IMG/VR virus record: IMGVR_UViG_3300035505_000328
Span: 34,775-98,774 of that record
Direction: 5' to 3' (one strand)
DNA: 64,000 bases
Source of the DNA: a virus
Lineage: Duplodnaviria > Caudoviricetes
Shown here: positions 2,471 through 46,184 of the stretch, one piece after another
Layout: each line of letters starts with the position of its first letter
How positions within the stretch are numbered: position 1 is the stretch's first letter
Notes under the pieces: generated by a model
What the model was told of the DNA's origin: nothing
What the model saw: only the letters and a program-made list of their open reading frames with translations
Database searches by the model: none
Program-made: the position numbers and the translations under genes

Positions 2471-3073
2471 TTATTTTTTTCTCAACTTGCTCTTGATATA
2501 AGACACAATACTTTCTCTATTAGAGCGGAATGTTAACTCACTAATATATAACATTAAATACTCATCTAATTCCTTAATCTGTTTATTCAGAACTGGAAGT
2601 AAATAATTATACTTAGGATTGTTACTATTATTGATACGGATAAGAATGTCTTCTAATGTTTTTCTTGTAGCAAGATATGTTTGGAAGTTCTTATCTTTAA
2701 TCTCTTTAGTAAGCTTATTATTCTGAAGAATCTTTAAGTAAACTTTATGCTTCCTGTCTGGAATTGTTGATGCTACGAACTGTCCTTCAGTATGTATAAT
2801 GTCTTGAATCTTTTTACATACAGCATCATCTTTAAAGTTATACTTAGGGTCAAGTAATGTTTCCAAGACAGCATTGAATTTAGAAACTTGTTCCATTTCT
2901 GATTCTTCTTGTCTTTTCTTAGCTTCTCTAAGTTTTCTAGCATGTTCCAATTCAAGTGCCTTATAATCAATTTCTTCTTGTTCAGGCTCTTCTTCTAATG
3001 GTTCAAGTTCAGGGTCATTAAGAAGTTCAACACCCATATCCAAGTATTCTTCATTGTCAATTTCTTTAGCCAT
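2471..3073 (-). CDS. Hypothetical protein (late-promoter gene)
   Basis: 200-aa ORF with SD GAAGGGAG and AACA-N6-TA at 3113-3102. Confidence 0.75.
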   Translation of the reverse strand: MAKEIDNEEYLDMGVELLNDPELEPLEEEPEQEEIDYKALELEHARKLREAKKRQEESEMEQVSKFNAVLETLLDPKYNFKDDAVCKKIQDIIHTEGQFVASTIPDRKHKVYLKILQNNKLTKEIKDKNFQTYLATRKTLEDILIRINNSNNPKYNYLLPVLNKQIKELDEYLMLYISELTFRSNRESIVSYIKSKLRKK

Positions 3074-3114
3074 TTTTATGCTCCCTTCTTCTAAGGTTTA
3101 TTATAAGTTTGTTC

Positions 3115-3571
3115 CAAAAAGCAGGAAGCCCTTCAATCTACCATGCCTAACGTAGATTGAAGGGTTTGTTGTAATTTTGGATTTTGAGGTTTGTCGTATT
3201 ATATACTTTTGAAAGGCATTACAACCAAAAGTATACAAAACCATGAAATTTGGAATATACTATTCAATTTACGAGCAAATAGTATTTCACACAGCGTTTA
3301 TGTTGTAAAAACAAACATAGAAAGGAGGATTACACCAACCGCATAACAGAAATGTGTAATCAAACGAAAAACAAAAGTAGTTCTAAATAACGGACTTTCC
3401 AAAGCAAAACTATTACCAAAAATCGGAAGAAAAAAGTAATAGCAACCACACGAAATTTAGTTCAGAACGATTTGTTGTAGGATAATATAAGTATTACACT
3501 CTATTTAATAATCTAATCGTAGGACATCAACCAGACTAAATACTAAATATGAATATAATAAATACATTACT
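3115..3571 (-). ncRNA. Candidate ~455-nt U-rich multi-hairpin non-coding RNA
   Basis: AACA-tattat-TA promoter at 3582-3571, no ORF, a series of 7-10 bp hairpins, and a terminal 13-bp hairpin (3129-3164) followed by a U-tract on the minus strand. Confidence 0.5.
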
Positions 3572-3673
3572 AATAATATGTTTCTAAAAATTTTTACTAT
3601 TAGAAAAATCTACTTTTTTGTTGAAAAACAAGAGAAAACTGTAAATTATACTAAATTTGAGGAGGAAATTATT

Positions 3674-4426
3674 ATGAGTTTATTAAAGTCAAAATTCAAA
3701 GAAGCTATTGAAAAGGATGGTAACTTAGGTAACAAACAAGAGTATGTTCCTTTCTTTAGAACTGGTATTGACATCTTTGATTACATCAATGGTGTTCGTA
3801 AGAGTAATGGTAATGTTGCTTTGGGTATTCAGGGCGGAAGAATTATCATGGATGTAGGAAATTCTGGTACTGGTAAATCTTCTAAGATTATTGGTCAGGC
3901 TTGTGCTATCGCAGACCAGTATGAGAACTCTGATGTATGGCATTATGACTTTGAGCGTTCTACAACTCCAGAACGTGTTATGAATATTGCTGGTTGGTCT
4001 TTTGAACATTACAAAGAGAAATATGAAATCTTCAATAAAGGAATTTCAGTAGAGACAATCTACAGAGCTTGTAAGAAGATTGAAAAAGTTAAACTTGAAA
4101 ACTATGATGATATCAAGATTGATAGTGGTGAAGTAGATGACAATGGAAAGCCAATTTATTACTTACCACCTACAATTATGATTATCGACTCTGTTGCATT
4201 ATTAGCTCCTGAAGAAGTTGAGAGTGATGATGAACTGAAAGGTAGTATGGGTGCAACTGCTATTGCTAAAGCTAACACAAATGTGTTTAAGAGGATAATG
4301 GACCCGATAGAAAATGCAAATATCATTGTAATGCTTGTAAATCACTTAACGCAGAAGATTGAAATTGGACCTGTTAAGTCTAAAGCACAGGTTAATTATC
4401 TGAAACAAGATGAATCAATTCCAGGT
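3674..4426 (+). CDS. uvsX: RecA/UvsX-like recombinase, exon 1
   Basis: Walker A GNSGTGKS, Walker B IIDSVA, and the MLVNHL motif. The exon ends ...ESIPG. The start is placed at 3674 because of the GGAGG SD. Confidence 0.9.
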
Positions 4427-5060
4427 AAACAATTCTGCCTGTACTAAGTCGTGAGGCTTAGTTGGAATGTTTCTAAGTGCGGGGAGTTCTTGTTAGGTCT
4501 TAACTACTAACTTAGAATAGTGATGTTCTAAGGGCAAAGGGTAATTCCGGAGGTATAGTAACCAAGGTTAAGAATAGAGATAATCCGCAGCTAAGCTGTT
4601 ATGTGTCCATCTTTCGGGAAAAACAATTATATAACTCAATTTGAAAGAAGATGTATAATTGTGAAAGATAATGATTTAATTTCATTAAATAAAACTAAGA
4701 AAATGTCTAAACAAGAAAAACTTGAAGTTGTTTTACATAATTGTAGAGTAGTTCATAAAGATATATTTGGAAACTAACAGAAGAGTTCAACGACTATCGA
4801 AAAGCTTATTATAAGGAGAAATACCTTATTCATATAAGTCAGTAGAGTACCCCCTAAGCGATTGAGGTTCTACTATCTGCAAGGAAGTAGGTAATGGGAA
4901 ATGTTACCCTCTTAAAATTTCTTTCAATATTCATTTTAAGAGTGAAGATATAGTCTCATCAGAATATATTTGTGGTGATTAATATATTCATTCTATAGAG
5001 ATATAGAGAAGTTCATAAGAGAACTGCTTGAATGAAGCGGATTCAAGTGAAGAAAATTTG
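4427..5060 (+). mobile_element. Group I intron in recA/uvsX (634 nt; homing endonuclease reduced to a remnant)
   Basis: P1 is CAGGU/GCCUG with a U.G pair at the 5' splice site. Core elements GUUCAACGACUA and GAAGAUAUAGUC are present, and the terminal G is at 5060. Splicing restores IPG|GKAITY, equivalent to RecA PGGxALKFY. Confidence 0.92.
4661..4777 (+). pseudogene. 38-codon remnant ORF inside the recA intron (probable deleted homing endonuclease)
   Basis: GTG...TAA ORF in a peripheral loop of the intron, preceded by a late-promoter word and an RBS-occluding hairpin. Confidence 0.5.
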
Positions 5061-5624
5061 GGAAAAGCTATCACCTATTTAACTAATACACTTACTAAGT
5101 TAGAAACAGGTTCTAAGTTAACACCTGATAAGGAATTAGGAATTAAAGGTTTCTATCTTACTGGTATTCTGATTAAATCAAGAAATACTGAAGCAGGAAC
5201 ACAGTTTAAAATGGTATTTGAGCAGTCTAAAGGTATTAACAACCTCTTGACTAACTTTGTAAACTTGAAGGATTTAAAGAGAATCTCTGGTGCAGGACGT
5301 TCATTCCATTTGGATACATTACCAGACGTTAAATTCTCTTTGAAAGAATTTGCTGAGAAGTATAGAACTAATGAAAAACTTCGTAAAGCTTTTGATGAAG
5401 CTGTAGATGAAGAATATTCTAAGTTCCTTCCAGATGAATTTGACAGTGCTTACAATGGTAACATTTCAGCTGAATCTGATAAAGAAGAAGATGAAGTAAT
5501 TCGTATCAATGAGGATGGAATGATTATCATTGATGAAGAAGAAGATATCTACAAAGACCCAGAGGATGGTACATATTATACCATTGAGGAAGATGAGTAC
5601 GTAGAGATTGAGTATGAAGAATAA
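5061..5624 (+). CDS. uvsX: RecA/UvsX-like recombinase, exon 2 (spliced product ~438 aa, acidic C-tail)
   Basis: In frame with exon 1 after intron removal; has the IKSR motif and a very acidic tail. Confidence 0.9.
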   Translation, partial: GKAITYLTNTLTKLETGSKLTPDKELGIKGFYLTGILIKSRNTEAGTQFKMVFEQSKGINNLLTNFVNLKDLKRISGAGRSFHLDTLPDVKFSLKEFAEKYRTNEKLRKAFDEAVDEEYSKFLPDEFDSAYNGNISAESDKEEDEVIRINEDGMIIIDEEEDIYKDPEDGTYYTIEEDEYVEIEYEE

Positions 5625-6781: not shown

Positions 6782-7822
6782 TTATAATAAATTCTTGATT
6801 GAATCTGCTTGTCCAAGTGCTCTGACATTTATTGTATTGGCACTTTCAAATTCATTTTGTAGCATAGACAAAGGACCTGCAAATGTTTCTTTCAAGTCAT
6901 CACAAAGTTGTTTGATTACATGCTTCTTACTTACAGCCAAGATATTCATGGCTTCTTTGTCACCTTTAGTTATTGGCTTCTTGATGACATCATTGAAATA
7001 ATCAAACATATGCACTGTATTAACGTTACCATCAATGGTGAAATTTTCTTTAATCTTTTTTCTAGTATCAATTATTTCATCAATACTTTCTTGAAGCGTT
7101 TCAGATTCCTTAAGGAAATTTGTCACACAAGCAGTTCCATTATTTGCTTGAACAGCTTTTAATTCAAAGTATACTTCCTTAAGGTTAACTTCATAAAGGT
7201 ACTGCAGCACCTCTAAAGCTACATAAATTCTGTAAGCTTCATTGTCTGAAAATAGTTTATCAACCTTATTTTCAGCCACAACAAATGGTGCTGAATCATA
7301 AAGGTCTTTGAAAATTACTTCCATCAAAGGAATGTTAACTCGTTCTGAACGCATGTAACCATCTTCACCTTGTGGGTCAAGGTTAAACTCCACTAGCTTG
7401 TAATGGAATTCACCATCTTCAGGATTATATCCCTGCTTGCATACAGAGATATTTTCCAAATCAAGATATTCCAAACTTGAACAACGATTTCCATGTCCAG
7501 CTCTAAACCAGTTTGAAGTTATTAATACTGGTTTGCTAATCATTTCTGGGTCTTGCTTAACTAAGAACTTAATTCTAGTCTGCAAATCCAGAAGGCTTGT
7601 ACTAACTGGTTTCCTGTCATATTCGCCAGCTGTATAACCAGCTAATATCAACATCTTTTCACTGATGTTTCCACTTTCAATTCTGTCAACATATACATCA
7701 AACCCTTCACTGTATTCATCCAATGTTGGGTTAGATACAACTAGTCGTATTGGTTGCGAATTTGTAGGGTCAAATTGTTCAATGAATTTTAAAAACTCCT
7801 GAACTGTGTAGTTTTTCTCCAT
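6782..7822 (-). CDS. Hypothetical early protein, paralog of the adjacent gene
   Basis: 346-aa ORF with SD AAGGAGG and ATATATTAT upstream (7879-7871). Confidence 0.8.
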   Translation of the reverse strand: MEKNYTVQEFLKFIEQFDPTNSQPIRLVVSNPTLDEYSEGFDVYVDRIESGNISEKMLILAGYTAGEYDRKPVSTSLLDLQTRIKFLVKQDPEMISKPVLITSNWFRAGHGNRCSSLEYLDLENISVCKQGYNPEDGEFHYKLVEFNLDPQGEDGYMRSERVNIPLMEVIFKDLYDSAPFVVAENKVDKLFSDNEAYRIYVALEVLQYLYEVNLKEVYFELKAVQANNGTACVTNFLKESETLQESIDEIIDTRKKIKENFTIDGNVNTVHMFDYFNDVIKKPITKGDKEAMNILAVSKKHVIKQLCDDLKETFAGPLSMLQNEFESANTINVRALGQADSIKNLL

Positions 7823-7924
7823 AGTTAAAATCCTCCTTTTCGTTTTATATTATCAAAAAGCTACATATTAATAATATATAAATAAAAAGAAGAGGAAAAC
7901 TGTTTCCAGTTTTCCTCATGTATT

Positions 7925-19685: not shown

Positions 19686-19694
19686 CAACCTTAT

Positions 19695-20150
19695 AAGAAA
19701 ACTTTTTGTATGTAAAATTGTGGGAAACTAATTATTGTAGGAATGTCATGTAACTATATGAAAGAATCATAACAACAGACATACACTTAAAAATTATTAT
19801 ATGCAATACACCAAATTCGAACAGCAAACCTCTTTTATTAAGTTGTGTGATATTCGTACAAAATTAGTTATCCGTTCTTGTAAGTGATTTAAAGGTAAAA
19901 ACCTGCACGTATATAAGTACATTGGCTTTGAGTGTTTCTAGAGCATGGAAAAGCATTTGGTAGGATTAATTTACTATGAATCATTTAGAGACAATATGGG
20001 TGATATAATGTTTGAGTTTGTTTTTTATTAAACTCACCAACAATCTTTGCACAAATAATTACACATTTTTATTTGTTGAATAATCAAAACGCACAGACAC
20101 ATCAAATATTTCCCTATTCTATTAATTTAGAATAGGGAAATATTTTTTTT
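19695..20150 (+). ncRNA. Candidate ~455-nt structured non-coding RNA
   Basis: AACA-acctta-TA promoter at 19684-19695, long G.U-containing stems that favour the + strand, and a strong terminator at 20104-20150. There is no credible ORF. Confidence 0.55.
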
Positions 20151-20184
20151 TAATATATAACAGCAAGAAAGTGAGGTAACACAC

Positions 20185-27933: not shown

Positions 27934-29415
27934 CTACTTTCCACTGTTGACTATAATGTTACCCTCTAAATCTTGGAATACAGGTCTTATAGCACTTACA
28001 ACCTTTTCTCCTCGACCAGCACAACATGTGGTTGATTCCAGCCAAACCCTAACTGGTTTCTTATCTTCTCCATGACCTCTCCAATAAGTGTGCCAATGAC
28101 CCCTACGCACATACTCATAGCTATGAGCAGAGCCATCATGGTGTTGTACATTATCCAAACCTAACTCTTTTCGTTCATACTCCTTACGAAGATTAGAAAT
28201 CTGGCTTAACAGATTATTTCTTTTCTTCGGAGTACTCCCTACCCTTTTTCTAGTTTCTTGCTTCGCATTAACTTCTTTCTTCTCTTTTCTTCTACGTTCT
28301 TTTTGGATTGGATGAAGAAGAATGAAGTTAATGATTAGGAAGTATGCAGCTCCAGCAAACATATGAGCAGCACATGCCTCATAGACACCTTTACGTTTCT
28401 CATTGGACTTAACTAAAATGTCCTCAACAGAAACACATCTGTCTAAGATTGCTCCCATCCCAAAAATTGCTTCCACATTATCGAATTCATACCATTTGAC
28501 GTTTGCTAAGTTGTCTTCATCAATATGTGGAACTGCATTTTCTTCTAACTTCTTAACAATGCCAACTTCTGAAGTAACTGCTTCCCGAACTGGAAGTCTC
28601 TCAGATAAATGTTTTGCAGCTTCTTCTTCAGTCTTATATGCTACAGCGTTAGAAATAACCCTTAACTCTCCACCAATCATTCGAAAATCAAAGAGCTGAT
28701 AAAAGATATCATCTGATTCTTCATACACTTTACCAGATTTGATTGCCAAACGTAAAGATGGTAATGGACAAGTTTCTGATATCTCGTCGAATAACTCTGA
28801 TGTTTTCAGTTGTCCATTACTACGTTTCACCATATCGTGATATAAGTCCATAACAGCTTCCATCTCTTCCAAGTTGCTTACAATCATTTGCTTAGATGTA
28901 GTGTTTACAGACTTAATCGTAGTAAAAGCTGGGTTGATTGTGCTTAGTCGTTTGAGAATGAACTCAAGTTCCTCAAGATGTTTAATTATCTTCCCCATAG
29001 AAAAAGACTTCTTGAAACTCATAATACTTCTGTATTCATCATCAAACTTCCTTACACTTGCCAGTGCTTTTGACACATCTTTCAGTTCAACATCATAGAA
29101 CTTCTGACCTGAATCCATGTATCTACGCACATCCCTTGTTTTCGTGTGTCTTGGTGTGTTTATTAAAAACACAATATCAGCAAGCATGTTAATTACTTCC
29201 TCATCTGAATAATCACCTGCAGACAATAATACAGCTATTGCTCTATCAGCAGGATTCTTAGATTCTGAAAGCTTTCTCATCTTGTTGATGTTGGCTATAT
29301 CAGCCATTTGTCGGTTCATAGAGAAATCTCTTAAACCATATGGGTTATTGCCAAAGCTACCTCCTTTCATAATACTTGACAAATCTCCAAACTTAGTAAA
29401 ATTGTTGTTCATCAT
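27934..29415 (-). CDS. Early protein with an AcrVA2/FinQ-like C-terminal RRGHWH motif
   Basis: YVRRGHWHTYWRG...VRVW near the C-terminus; early motif at 29473-29465. Confidence 0.55.
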   Translation of the reverse strand: MMNNNFTKFGDLSSIMKGGSFGNNPYGLRDFSMNRQMADIANINKMRKLSESKNPADRAIAVLLSAGDYSDEEVINMLADIVFLINTPRHTKTRDVRRYMDSGQKFYDVELKDVSKALASVRKFDDEYRSIMSFKKSFSMGKIIKHLEELEFILKRLSTINPAFTTIKSVNTTSKQMIVSNLEEMEAVMDLYHDMVKRSNGQLKTSELFDEISETCPLPSLRLAIKSGKVYEESDDIFYQLFDFRMIGGELRVISNAVAYKTEEEAAKHLSERLPVREAVTSEVGIVKKLEENAVPHIDEDNLANVKWYEFDNVEAIFGMGAILDRCVSVEDILVKSNEKRKGVYEACAAHMFAGAAYFLIINFILLHPIQKERRRKEKKEVNAKQETRKRVGSTPKKRNNLLSQISNLRKEYERKELGLDNVQHHDGSAHSYEYVRRGHWHTYWRGHGEDKKPVRVWLESTTCCAGRGEKVVSAIRPVFQDLEGNIIVNSGK

Positions 29416-45395: not shown

Positions 45396-46184
45396 ATGTT
45401 TATCGAAGAATTTGATAGTGATAATATATTTGAATTAACTGAAAGTGAACAGAATGAAATCACTAGTAAGTTATCAGATGAACTCATTATCAGTAATATA
45501 AGAGAACAGATGAAAGCTACTATATCAGAAAGCTTAATTCCAAATGATATACTTAATGTCTTTAATGAAAGATATGATTTCATTGTAAGATATTATGCTG
45601 ATGACAATTCTTTAGTAACTAAGTGTAAGAATATTCGTAGGAATATCTATACAGAAATCTTTAATACTATTAAGGAAAGATTTCAATTTGAATCTAAACT
45701 TAATGAAGAAAATGAAGATTTTTATTTCTGTACAAAGGAGTTGTATCTATTCTTTGTAGTAAATTATAGATTTAACTTAATTAAATTCTTTACTAAGTTT
45801 ATTACAGACCATAGTAAGGAATTAGTTAAGGAATATAAATCATCAGAACACAAGAAAGATTTGATGTTTAAGTCTTTGAAGAAAACAATTAAGAACCAAG
45901 ATAATATTTATATTGTATATAATATAGATAATATTATAGGTGATTTCATTGAGGTATTCAATGAGAATGGTGAAGATGTTATTAGTGATATTGTCAATAC
46001 TGATATCTATGAATTAAACTACAATACAATCAATGAGTTATTCATAGAGAATAAGTATGAGACATATATTAATAACCAATTTCCTCAAATATTCTTCAAA
46101 CCATTAGTTGATGAGGAAACCAGACATGATATCATTGCAGAGATTAGAAATAATCTTATCATGTATTACAAAGACAATAATTAA
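45396..46184 (+). CDS. Hypothetical protein
   Basis: 262 aa, SD AAGGAGG. Confidence 0.8.
   Translation: MFIEEFDSDNIFELTESEQNEITSKLSDELIISNIREQMKATISESLIPNDILNVFNERYDFIVRYYADDNSLVTKCKNIRRNIYTEIFNTIKERFQFESKLNEENEDFYFCTKELYLFFVVNYRFNLIKFFTKFITDHSKELVKEYKSSEHKKDLMFKSLKKTIKNQDNIYIVYNIDNIIGDFIEVFNENGEDVISDIVNTDIYELNYNTINELFIENKYETYINNQFPQIFFKPLVDEETRHDIIAEIRNNLIMYYKDNN

Follow-up and report, generated by a model that had tools for sequence, protein, structure and literature searches.

Several regulatory RNAs of Bacillota, including Staphylococcus aureus RNAIII (~514 nt; a string of hairpins), RsaE/RoxS, and Listeria LhrC, use C/U-rich single-stranded motifs to pair with Shine-Dalgarno (SD) regions and block initiation. 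These anti-SD RNAs are chromosomal genes with defined targets, and their short UCCC-type seeds are usually located in hairpin loops. GOLLD and ROOL, which are ORF-less structured RNAs of several hundred nucleotides from phages and prophages of Bacillota, have deep covarying consensus structures and are represented in Rfam. The structured OLE RNA of Bacillota (~600 nt) contains in its P6 an exact copy of the 16S anti-SD, and bS21 binds this SD/anti-SD mimic (PMC12054373). There, an SD-like strand pairs with the copy within an ornate, strongly conserved structure, and the RNA has dedicated protein partners. Among jumbo phages, Bacillus phage AR9 makes late non-mRNA (i.e., antisense) transcripts (PMC5312081). 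Its late promoter consensus, AACA-(6N)-TA/G, has the transcription start as its last base and is recognized in uracil DNA by the non-virion RNA polymerase (PMC5312081). That study contains no free-standing late non-coding RNA gene, and the papers that we consulted on the AR9/PBS1 uracil-DNA group report none.

Here, we analyzed an ORF-less, hairpin-rich stretch (positions 3116 to 3582, minus strand; ~455 nt) of a 64,000-nt piece of jumbo phage DNA (hereafter, the window), together with its counterparts in two related uncultured lineages (L019 and L022). Like the anti-SD RNAs of Bacillota, this unit is a predicted folded RNA with an accessible C/U-rich motif complementary to the SD. It differs from them in that the motif is a full 10- to 11-nt copy of the 16S tail located in the linker that joins two hairpins, and in that the RNA is phage-borne, is predicted to be late, and has neither an identifiable specific target nor an Rfam match. 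In contrast to OLE, the RNA has no Rfam match and no conserved body, and its copy of the anti-SD is predicted to be single-stranded. Unlike GOLLD and ROOL, the window, L019, and L022 fail to reach even E = 1 with the models of those two families. The unit shares the late promoter grammar of AR9, which itself has no such unit upstream of UvsX.

Location and anatomy of the unit

The unit is carried by an uncultured AR9/PBS1-like jumbo phage, the UvsX of which is 46% identical to that of AR9/PBS1; a split RNA polymerase beta gene near the unit fits this identity. The unit lies within the 600 nt that separate a 200-aa late gene from a split UvsX gene, and it is bordered by an AR9-type late promoter (3582 to 3571) and a 13- to 16-bp hairpin (3126 to 3167). 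All of the features named in the original prediction were found, at the positions given there, by sequence inspection and an inverted-repeat search. The features of the locus, in window coordinates, are as follows.

2471 to 3073, minus strand: downstream 200-aa late gene, function unassigned; syntenic anchor
3102 to 3113, minus strand: separate late promoter (AACA-N6-TA) of the 200-aa gene, just past the terminator
3126 to 3167, minus strand: terminator hairpin (inverted repeat) with a perfect 13-bp stem (3129-3141/3152-3164), a 10-nt loop (GUUAGGCAUG), and a U-run at 3120-3116
3196 to 3241, minus strand: hairpin with a stem of ~14 bp (inverted repeat; fold)
3257 to 3285, minus strand: hairpin with an 8-bp stem and a 13-nt loop (inverted repeat; folds)
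3299 to 3319, minus strand: short 6-bp hairpin immediately 3' of the anti-SD (sequence; weak in the centroid fold)
3318 to 3328, minus strand: anti-SD CCUCCUUUCUA, predicted to be exposed; complement of the phage consensus ribosome site
3328 to 3361, minus strand: hairpin with an 8-bp stem and an 18-nt loop, immediately 5' of the anti-SD (inverted repeat; pair probability >0.9)
3410 to 3442, minus strand: hairpin with a 7-bp stem and a U-rich 19-nt loop (inverted repeat; MFE fold)
3482 to 3570, minus strand: AU-rich long 5'-terminal hairpin, nt 2 to 90 of the predicted RNA (MFE and centroid folds)
3571 to 3582, minus strand: late promoter AACA-N6-TA (AACATATTATTA) with the A at 3571 as the predicted start (sequence; match to the AR9 late consensus)
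3637 to 3648, plus strand: divergent promoter-like site (AACT-N6-TA) of UvsX, at which the unit's neighborhood ends on the right

The window contains only two promoters of this 12-mer type, the other being the distal one of the tail sheath gene. The bare AACA-N6-TA motif shows no enrichment, with 116 occurrences in the window versus 138 expected. Within the unit, no early promoter was detected; one core with a single mismatch, at 3564, was dismissed.

The stem of the terminator hairpin extends to 16 bp (3126-3167) when one mismatch is allowed. The minus-strand U-run lies 8 nt past the stem, which is non-canonical, and the hairpin therefore looks no worse as a terminator when read on the plus strand. 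A consensus terminator scan made no call for this hairpin because its 10-nt loop exceeds the 8-nt limit of the tool.

The 200-aa gene had no match in Pfam or PHROG searches. Homologs of this gene (24 to 46% identity) flank the site in relatives, where a counterpart of its own promoter was found both with and without the unit. An AACT-N6-TA site is present at the equivalent place in the L010 and L011 loci.

Coding potential and known RNA families

No ORF of at least 5 aa with a ribosome site exists on either strand of this phage's unit, and a tRNA/tmRNA search found none. A protein or small-peptide gene was rejected on this basis, given also that tblastx revealed no similarity among the three units and that the mini-ORFs on the opposite strand differ (none, 4 aa, and 15 aa). 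Against Rfam 15, the region from 2900 to 3800 gave only chance-level miRNA and snoRNA matches (≤21 bits) at E values of up to 10, the whole window gave nothing at the gathering threshold, and L019 and L022 gave nothing at E values of up to 1. A known RNA family (i.e., OLE, GOLLD, ROOL, 6S, ribozymes, or introns) was accordingly rejected for lack of an Rfam match. No paralog was found in the 98.8-kb genome, including a second ORF-less unit at 19686-20184.

The original prediction had also raised a processed guide array and a multi-target antisense RNA. We detected neither array repeats nor processing signals, apart from one weak 25-nt pair (72% identity). These readings, in which the varied loops would be guides or antisense heads, are unsupported because stems, loops, and a second named segment, UUUUCGUUU, are not conserved among the three homologs. 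A CRISPR-like array was rejected as well, since regularly spaced direct repeats were not found.

Occurrence among related phages

Three lineages (i.e., this phage, L018/L019, and L022) share the unit, with its site and strand unchanged, and each time it consists of a promoter, 400 to 560 nt without an ORF, and a terminator, followed by the late promoter of the 200-aa gene. Four other loci (L010, L011, L023, and L029) keep the synteny without the unit, and their spacers measure only 144 to 189 nt. The cultured jumbo phages AR9, PBS1, BpSp, and LPJP1 and those of Staphylococcus have no unit upstream of UvsX, where they show short spacers or different neighbors. On a tree of the neighboring proteins, the bearers of the unit cluster together (support, 86/50), with those proteins being only 42 to 46% identical. 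Scans of the collection with the terminator-loop pattern and with a profile of the 200-aa protein yielded nothing new, and a scan with a UvsX profile yielded unit-less loci only. Judging from this distribution, the unit appears to be an optional, accessory (moron-like) gene.

The comparison rests on three independent unit sequences, which are unalignable outside two blocks surviving in all of them: the late promoter and the anti-SD. Global alignment of the units is unreliable, and no covariance model was built for that reason; four more contigs carry the unit at 100% identity and are therefore uninformative for covariation. The promoter is kept in L019 and L022 as a 15-nt block (AACATAWWATTARTA). 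The terminator loop of L019 is identical to that of this phage, which together with the closing pairs makes a 14-nt exact match, and the stems of the two show compensating changes around this loop. By inspection, L019 and L022 have canonical U-runs directly after the hairpin, on the unit strand only.

The original prediction of an independent, late-promoter-driven, minus-strand non-coding unit is strengthened by these data, as two further lineages have, at the same site, the promoter, no ORF, strong folding, and a terminator on the same strand. On sequence grounds, the locus is quite probably a real non-coding late transcription unit.

Folding and base composition

The minus strand of the unit folds at -115.8 kcal/mol, compared with a shuffle mean of -82.4 (z = -5.85), and 0 of 100 shuffles folded as well. 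The plus strand has a z value of -3.61. Among control windows of the genome, 3 of 28 reached z ≤ -5 in a noisy 12-shuffle test. The strength of the fold is unusual, not unique, and belongs to roughly the top tenth of genome windows. On the unit strand, the predicted fold is stronger than that of shuffles for all three homologs (z = -5.85 for this phage and -3.92 and -5.02 for the other two), and in each of them, confident pairs and G.U pairs are both more numerous on this strand than on its complement.

In the predicted folds, pairing begins 2 to 9 nt from the predicted start in all three homologs. A discrete 5' hairpin is closed in this phage and in L019; in L022, the whole RNA is enclosed by the outermost pair, after which comes a long local hairpin. 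Such a 5' hairpin may stabilize the RNA against 5' exonuclease. The sequence AUGCCU (3219-3214), in the loop of the 3196-3241 hairpin, reads as complementary to the terminator loop.

About 11 CG dinucleotides had been reported for the unit; 11 were counted, with an observed/expected ratio of 1.05. The corresponding ratios are 0.54 in the remaining non-coding DNA and 0.37 over the window as a whole. As many CGs occur in 2.8% of 468-nt windows. The CG excess is real but weak.

Conserved anti-Shine-Dalgarno block

The block CCUCCUUUCU, a 10-mer identical in all three homologs, matches what we take to be the last 10 to 11 nt of the 16S rRNA 3' tail of Bacillota (i.e., a tail sequence assumed for the phylum, not that of the host's own 16S). 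A shared word of at least 9 nt with at least 4 G/C arose in 0 of 3,000 shuffles, and the shared 10-mer is far beyond chance. The ribosome sites of the phage are the complement of this block, which on the opposite strand looks like an ordinary ribosome site. In the predicted fold of this phage's RNA, the mean unpaired probability of the block is 0.85 versus 0.38 for the whole RNA; the values in the other two homologs are 0.77 and 0.47, with the means of the three RNAs ranging from 0.35 to 0.39. An unpaired anti-SD had been noted earlier, and it is this segment that is both predicted to be open and conserved, as the one internal element, across the three units. Its selective conservation makes it the likely functional core of the RNA. 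Since the anti-SD is the only internal sequence shared with the units of the two relatives, the RNA probably acts on translation.

The complementary 9-mer without a following start codon has three copies in the 98.8-kb genome, one of which is the unit; the remaining two are a hairpin-bridged site at the sheath gene and a capsid site, which is followed only by a 2-aa frame. In the genomes of AR9, PBS1, BpSp, LPJP1, and the Staphylococcus jumbo phages, the 10-mer is rare, and a start-less copy was not found; the one match that was checked (in LPJP1) is an ordinary ribosome site. Of five uncultured relatives with near-complete genomes, one (G003) lacks the 10-mer; the copies in the other four are ribosome sites, three start-less sites, or located inside an RNA polymerase gene. 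The three start-less sites resemble the sheath/capsid type.

The anti-SD and UUUUCGUUU had been proposed to be complementary to the AAACGAA..GGAGG leaders of early genes at 7822, 29415, and 55773. Both segments are present, but their joint pairing with one leader was rejected because their 5'-to-3' order on the RNA is reversed and UUUUCGUUU is not conserved. Nor did specific targeting of early genes stand up: ribosome sites with at least 8 nt of complementarity to the anti-SD belong to 20 of 57 genes, and early and late sites do not differ in this respect, so that the anti-SD fits ribosome sites generally, without a bias in temporal class. The best predicted duplex (-23.9 kcal/mol) involves the gene at 45396. 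The duplex predictions are generic, and there is a correlation (r = 0.69) between the energies obtained with the unit and with the 16S tail itself. An anti-SD that would pair with ribosome sites of every temporal class points to no specific target or benefit.

Proposed function and alternative explanations

Our best reading, to which we assign a probability of roughly 0.45, is that the unit encodes an accessory, stable, late non-coding RNA of ~455 nt (3571 to ~3116, minus strand) that works through its anti-SD on translation initiation. We infer that the non-virion RNA polymerase would transcribe the unit late from its AACA-N6-TA promoter, which is of the tail-sheath subtype. The long hairpin would cap the 5' end of the RNA and the terminator hairpin would close its 3' end, while the variable body of U-rich hairpins would serve mainly as a scaffold. 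The working part would be the single-stranded copy of the 16S rRNA 3' tail, through which the RNA most likely pairs in trans with AGAAAGGAGG-type ribosome sites in phage or host messages and so affects translation initiation. Taken by itself, pairing with SD sites as the mode of action is a tentative proposal that we put at less than even odds.

The same segment could instead act as a decoy of the 16S tail, titrating a factor that recognizes the tail (e.g., bS21, or a host nuclease or toxin that hits the 16S 3' end). It matches the presumed last 10 to 11 nt of the tail and is predicted to be single-stranded, and in this phage and L022 the likeness runs a few bases upstream (AAUC before the core). 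The anti-SD mimic of OLE RNA, which binds bS21, provides a parallel in Bacillota (PMC12054373), and the unit is accessory, like many counter-defense genes. However, the OLE mimic is a paired SD/anti-SD duplex, whereas the block is predicted to be open here and inspection found no GGAGG-type, SD-like strand elsewhere in the RNA. With no bS21 gene within the 38% of the genome searched, and with neither a known candidate partner nor a defense system, we consider this reading unlikely.

A function of the plus (i.e., UvsX) strand is less probable again. The block on that strand (GAAAGGAGG, with no start codon) would then be the SD of a decayed gene or mini-ORF, or a ribosome-docking stabilizer in a long UvsX leader; it presumably matches the STAB-SD of Bacillus thuringiensis cryIIIA. 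The block is the consensus ribosome site of the phage, an ATG lies 5 to 7 nt past it in L022 and L019 (with frames of 15 aa and 4 aa, respectively), and the T-run of the 3126-3167 hairpin is better on the plus strand. In this phage's copy, however, a start codon is missing from the nearest 22 nt, none of the mini-ORFs is conserved, and no early, late, or AACT-type promoter occurs upstream of the block in any of the three units. A STAB-SD sits in an mRNA 5' leader, on its own strand, whereas the promoter kept in all three units faces the opposite way, as do the terminators, with the U-runs of L019 and L022 found on the unit strand only. Moreover, a ribosome site would be the least expected survivor of three independent gene decays.

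A similarly low probability applies to the unit being a long cis-regulatory leader of the 200-aa gene, in which read-through of a leaky hairpin would let the anti-SD tune expression. The unit always lies immediately upstream of this gene in the same orientation, its terminator is weak on the minus strand in this phage, and leaders of up to 491 nt occur in AR9 (PMC5312081). Nevertheless, the 200-aa gene is preceded by a late promoter of its own, past the hairpin and ahead of the start codon, in phages with the unit and in those lacking it, the terminators of L019 and L022 are strong and canonical, and by inspection the anti-SD pairs poorly with the ribosome site of the gene.

It is equally improbable that the locus has no RNA function and is a DNA-level element (i.e., a replication origin, a recombination or packaging site, or a promoter insulator) or decaying insertion junk. 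The region is AT-rich and rich in inverted repeats, which fold on both strands, it lies at a switch of divergent transcription, and the sequence of its body is not conserved. On the other hand, the unit is missing from close relatives and is therefore not an essential origin, and there are no iterons or direct repeats except for the one weak pair. Junk would not stay ORF-less, fold better than shuffles, and keep a promoter, a terminator, and a C-rich block of 10 nt across lineages in which the neighboring proteins are ~43% identical. Finally, a 6S-like polymerase sponge mimicking the uracil template-strand promoter was dismissed, as neither UGUU nor the full motif is enriched in the three RNAs.

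Implications

The non-coding RNAs of jumbo phages are almost unexplored. The comparative picture obtained here is that of an RNA free to drift except for its late promoter and its exposed copy of the 16S tail. A more far-reaching and rather doubtful interpretation is that a late flood of this stable copy masks strong AGAAAGGAGG-type sites to reprogram initiation, or soaks up a factor or a defense nuclease aimed at the 16S 3' end; if similar RNAs were confirmed in unrelated phages, it would form with them a convergent, undescribed class of viral "16S-tail mimic" RNAs and point to a recurrent viral strategy. If the unit is untranscribed, the locus would be a mere variable spacer. If the RNA exists and acts through its copy of the 16S tail, it would give the virus a means to interfere with, or to imitate, the selection of mRNAs by the ribosome.

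Genomic setting and promoters

The window belongs to a 98.8-kb IMG/VR fragment (estimated at ~38% of a genome) of a phage with a low G+C content (~31%). The nearest relatives of its UvsX-like recombinase come from Bacillus phages AR9 and PBS1 (46% identity) and from other jumbo phages of the uracil-DNA type; a split multisubunit RNA-polymerase gene lies nearby. AR9 promoters fall into two classes, i.e., early (AAATATATATTAT-(6N)-G) and late (AACA-(6N)-TA/G, with transcription starting at the last base) (PMC5312081). Both grammars were seen in the window. Ahead of the genes at 7822, 29415, 55773, 44191, and 49605 there is a tight early consensus (core TATATATTAT), and AACA-N6-TA occurs 28 to 200 nt upstream of many structural genes. 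Sites with the early core lie at 7880, 29474, 55723, 44265, 49509, 52204, 32049, and 21325, usually with TAATATG after them; this consensus closely resembles that of AR9. Genome-wide, CG dinucleotides show a strong depletion (observed/expected, 0.37) that GC dinucleotides do not share.

The predicted RNA gene (the unit) sits in a 600-nt gap (3074-3673) between two divergent genes. The features of the locus are as follows.

Features of the locus (window positions unless a contig is named)
2471-3073, minus: 200-aa gene, function unassigned (no match in Pfam and PHROG searches)
3126-3167: large hairpin (perfect stem of 13 bp, or 16 bp if one mismatch is allowed; loop of 10 nt)
3328-3319, minus: anti-Shine-Dalgarno (anti-SD) block
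3582-3571, minus: promoter motif of the unit
3637-3648, plus: AACT-N6-TA site, ~25-50 nt upstream of the UvsX ribosome site (also at ~1046-1057 in L010 and ~664-675 in L011, two relatives without the unit)
3674-4447, plus: first part of the split UvsX gene

The UvsX gene (3674-5624, plus strand) is interrupted by ~580 nt (4448-5027) that separate a 257-aa part from a 198-aa part and contain a 58-aa ORF (4601-4777); its relatives are continuous across the junction (IPGG...). Two colinear matches of the insert to the group I intron model fall below threshold (17.4 and 14.3 bits), and the insert is probably an intron of this type. Another ORF-free stretch (19686-20184, plus strand; 499 nt), downstream of the DNA ligase gene, begins with an AACA-N6-TA motif, carries a long perfect terminator, and shows no sequence similarity to the unit. 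A 611-nt ORF-free gap with visibly higher G+C content, which looks structured, lies ~6 kb upstream of the window (28444-29054 of the fragment).

Anatomy and folding of the unit

The promoter motif, five named hairpins, large hairpin, and anti-SD listed in the original prediction are all present, and the unit is ORF-less as described: neither strand has an ORF of at least 5 codons preceded by any Shine-Dalgarno-like sequence. The minus strand folds at -115.8 kcal/mol, compared with -82.4 for dinucleotide shuffles (z = -5.85; plus strand, z = -3.61). Three of 28 control windows from the same genome, all with terminators, reached z values of -5 or below; the unit lies in the lower tail of real genome windows and is no outlier. 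The claimed CG enrichment is correct but modest, with 11 CGs and an observed/expected ratio of 1.05 (0.37 in the window and 0.54 in other non-coding DNA). The homologous units described below show the same trend (0.70 and 0.71 versus 0.34 and 0.31 in their flanks).

The large hairpin had been taken as a terminator, but the minus-strand U-run does not start until 8 nt past the stem. Since a T-rich tract follows the stem directly on the plus strand, the hairpin of the window copy can at best be called bidirectional. Within 3110-3120 (minus), just two bases part the U-run from the next late promoter's AACA, and this promoter lies 27 nt from the terminator loop both here and in L019, one of the unit-bearing relatives. 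On the minus strand, the loop of the 3196-3241 hairpin (AUGCCU, 3214-3219) is a perfect complement of AGGCAU (3143-3148), six bases within the conserved terminator loop. A similar UGUAAUGC element lies near the 5' end of L019, and the terminator loop of L022, another unit bearer, is UGUAAUG; this complementarity could be a loop-loop contact or chance.

Relatives with and without the unit

The 200-aa protein was an orphan in a word-based search, and four other contigs that carry it are 100% identical across the locus. Metagenomic relatives of UvsX (65 to 76% identity) lie on contigs with two kinds of locus. In L010, L011, L023, and L029, the same divergent gene pair is separated by just 144 to 189 nt and the unit is absent. 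The 200-aa homologue is 24 to 35% identical in the first three; the neighbor in L029 is a 226-aa protein on a very long branch, whose homology is unsure. The late promoter of the 200-aa gene is present in each of the three spacers read (L010, L011, and L023), and AACT-N6-TA precedes UvsX in those of L010 and L011. The kept position of this site supports the earlier idea that a second promoter variant exists. The unit is clearly not essential.

The second kind of locus occurs in L018/L019 (two contigs, 99.5% identical; UvsX, 70 to 72%; 200-aa protein, 41 to 46%; spacer, ~720 nt) and L022 (76%, 42%, and ~566 nt, respectively). On the strand of the 200-aa gene, both have an AACA-N6-TA promoter of the window's subtype (AACATAWWATTA), then 400 to 560 nt in which no ORF is credible, a strong hairpin with an immediate U-run, and the 200-aa gene's own late promoter. 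Unit-strand folds beat shuffles in L019 and L022 (z = -3.92 and -5.02), and fold energies are lower on the unit strand than on the opposite strand in all three units. Pairs with probability >0.9 number 85, 84, and 68 on the unit strand versus 59, 57, and 44 on the opposite strand, including 9, 7, and 10 versus 3, 1, and 4 G.U pairs. This asymmetry fits RNA-level selection on the unit strand, with a contribution from the U+G-rich composition. Predicted pairing begins 2 to 9 nt from the predicted start in all three units; there a discrete long 5' hairpin is closed in the window copy and L019, while the outermost pair of L022 encloses the entire RNA, with a long local hairpin close behind.

In the tree of neighboring proteins, the three unit bearers form a moderately supported group (86/50) with the unit-less L023 as sister, which suggests one gain of the unit or its retention in this clade. 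In the more distant L037 (UvsX, 56% identical), an element upstream of UvsX on the opposite strand (~1620-1730, minus) has the identical 12-mer promoter, AACATATTATTA, followed by ~60 nt with AUCCUCUU and a 14-bp terminator; it may be a miniature counterpart of the unit.

Conserved blocks

The three units could not be globally aligned, and tblastx among them found nothing. A search for 14-nt windows common to all three yielded exactly two colinear blocks, i.e., the promoter (AACATAWWATTARTA) and the anti-SD block, which contains CCUCCUUUCU. The three units have no longer word in common than this 10-mer; in 3,000 dinucleotide-shuffle sets, a shared word with at least 4 G/C was 8 nt long in one case and 9 nt long in none. 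The block matches the 3' tail of 16S rRNA as known from Bacillota. It is the exact complement of the phage's preferred ribosome site, AGAAAGGAGG. The complementary 9-mer has eight copies in the 98.8-kb genome fragment, five of them followed by a start codon; the other three, without a usable start, are a hairpin-bridged tail sheath site, a capsid site (2-aa frame only), and the unit's own copy. The predicted unpaired probability of the block is 0.85, 0.77, and 0.47 in the three units, versus whole-RNA means of 0.35 to 0.39; it is predicted to lie in a small loop of L019 and between two hairpins in the other two units.

The terminator loop is partly conserved: a 14-nt stretch (the 10-nt loop and its closing pairs) is identical in the window copy and L019, within stems that differ by compensating changes, and the loop of L022 is different. 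Conservation across the three units does not extend to the individual hairpins, their loops, or UUUUCGUUU, which leaves the guide-array and multi-target readings originally proposed without support. Complementarity of the anti-SD and UUUUCGUUU to AAACGAA..GGAGG leaders had also been noted; both elements are present, but UUUUCGUUU lies 5' of the anti-SD and colinear pairing needs the reverse order.

Possible mode of action

The anatomy (a late promoter of the sheath type, a 5' hairpin, a variable hairpin scaffold, a single exposed invariant anti-SD, and a 3' hairpin) suggests a stable, abundant late RNA acting via its single-stranded block. Apart from the unit's promoter, AACATAWWATTA occurs in the window just once, as the distal promoter of the sheath gene. 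In the simplest mode, the block would pair with Shine-Dalgarno regions. Of 57 genes, 20 have a complement of at least 8 nt to the block, with no early/late bias, and the predicted duplexes follow those of the 16S tail itself (r = 0.69); as modeled, they are generic. The best single site, at the gene starting at 45396, has 12 contiguous pairs.

Alternatively, the copy may imitate the ribosomal tail for a protein, as the anti-SD mimic of OLE RNA binds bS21 (PMC12054373). That mimic is a duplex, however, while the unit's block is predicted to be unpaired, and the fragment has no bS21 gene.

A minor alternative places a ribosome site on the plus strand, where short frames follow the block in L022 (15 codons) and L019 (4 codons). 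Their peptides are unrelated, though, and in the window copy the first 22 nt after the block lack a start codon; upstream of the block, that strand showed none of the three promoter types (early, late, and AACT). The sole promoter kept in all three copies is directed along the unit strand, and the terminator U-run of L019 and L022 is found on that strand only. Because a decayed gene would not retain just its ribosome site in three lineages, we read the block as an anti-SD on a predicted minus-strand RNA. The idea that a U-rich RNA mimics a uracil-containing template-strand promoter and traps the non-virion polymerase found no support.

Neither the unit nor its homologues matched Rfam, and the unit is absent from cultured AR9-like phages. 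The anti-SD regulatory RNAs of Bacillota are closest to its proposed mode of working and OLE RNA shares the motif idea; the unit is a member of neither. A non-coding late unit and the importance of its anti-SD have reasonable support; its function is inferred.
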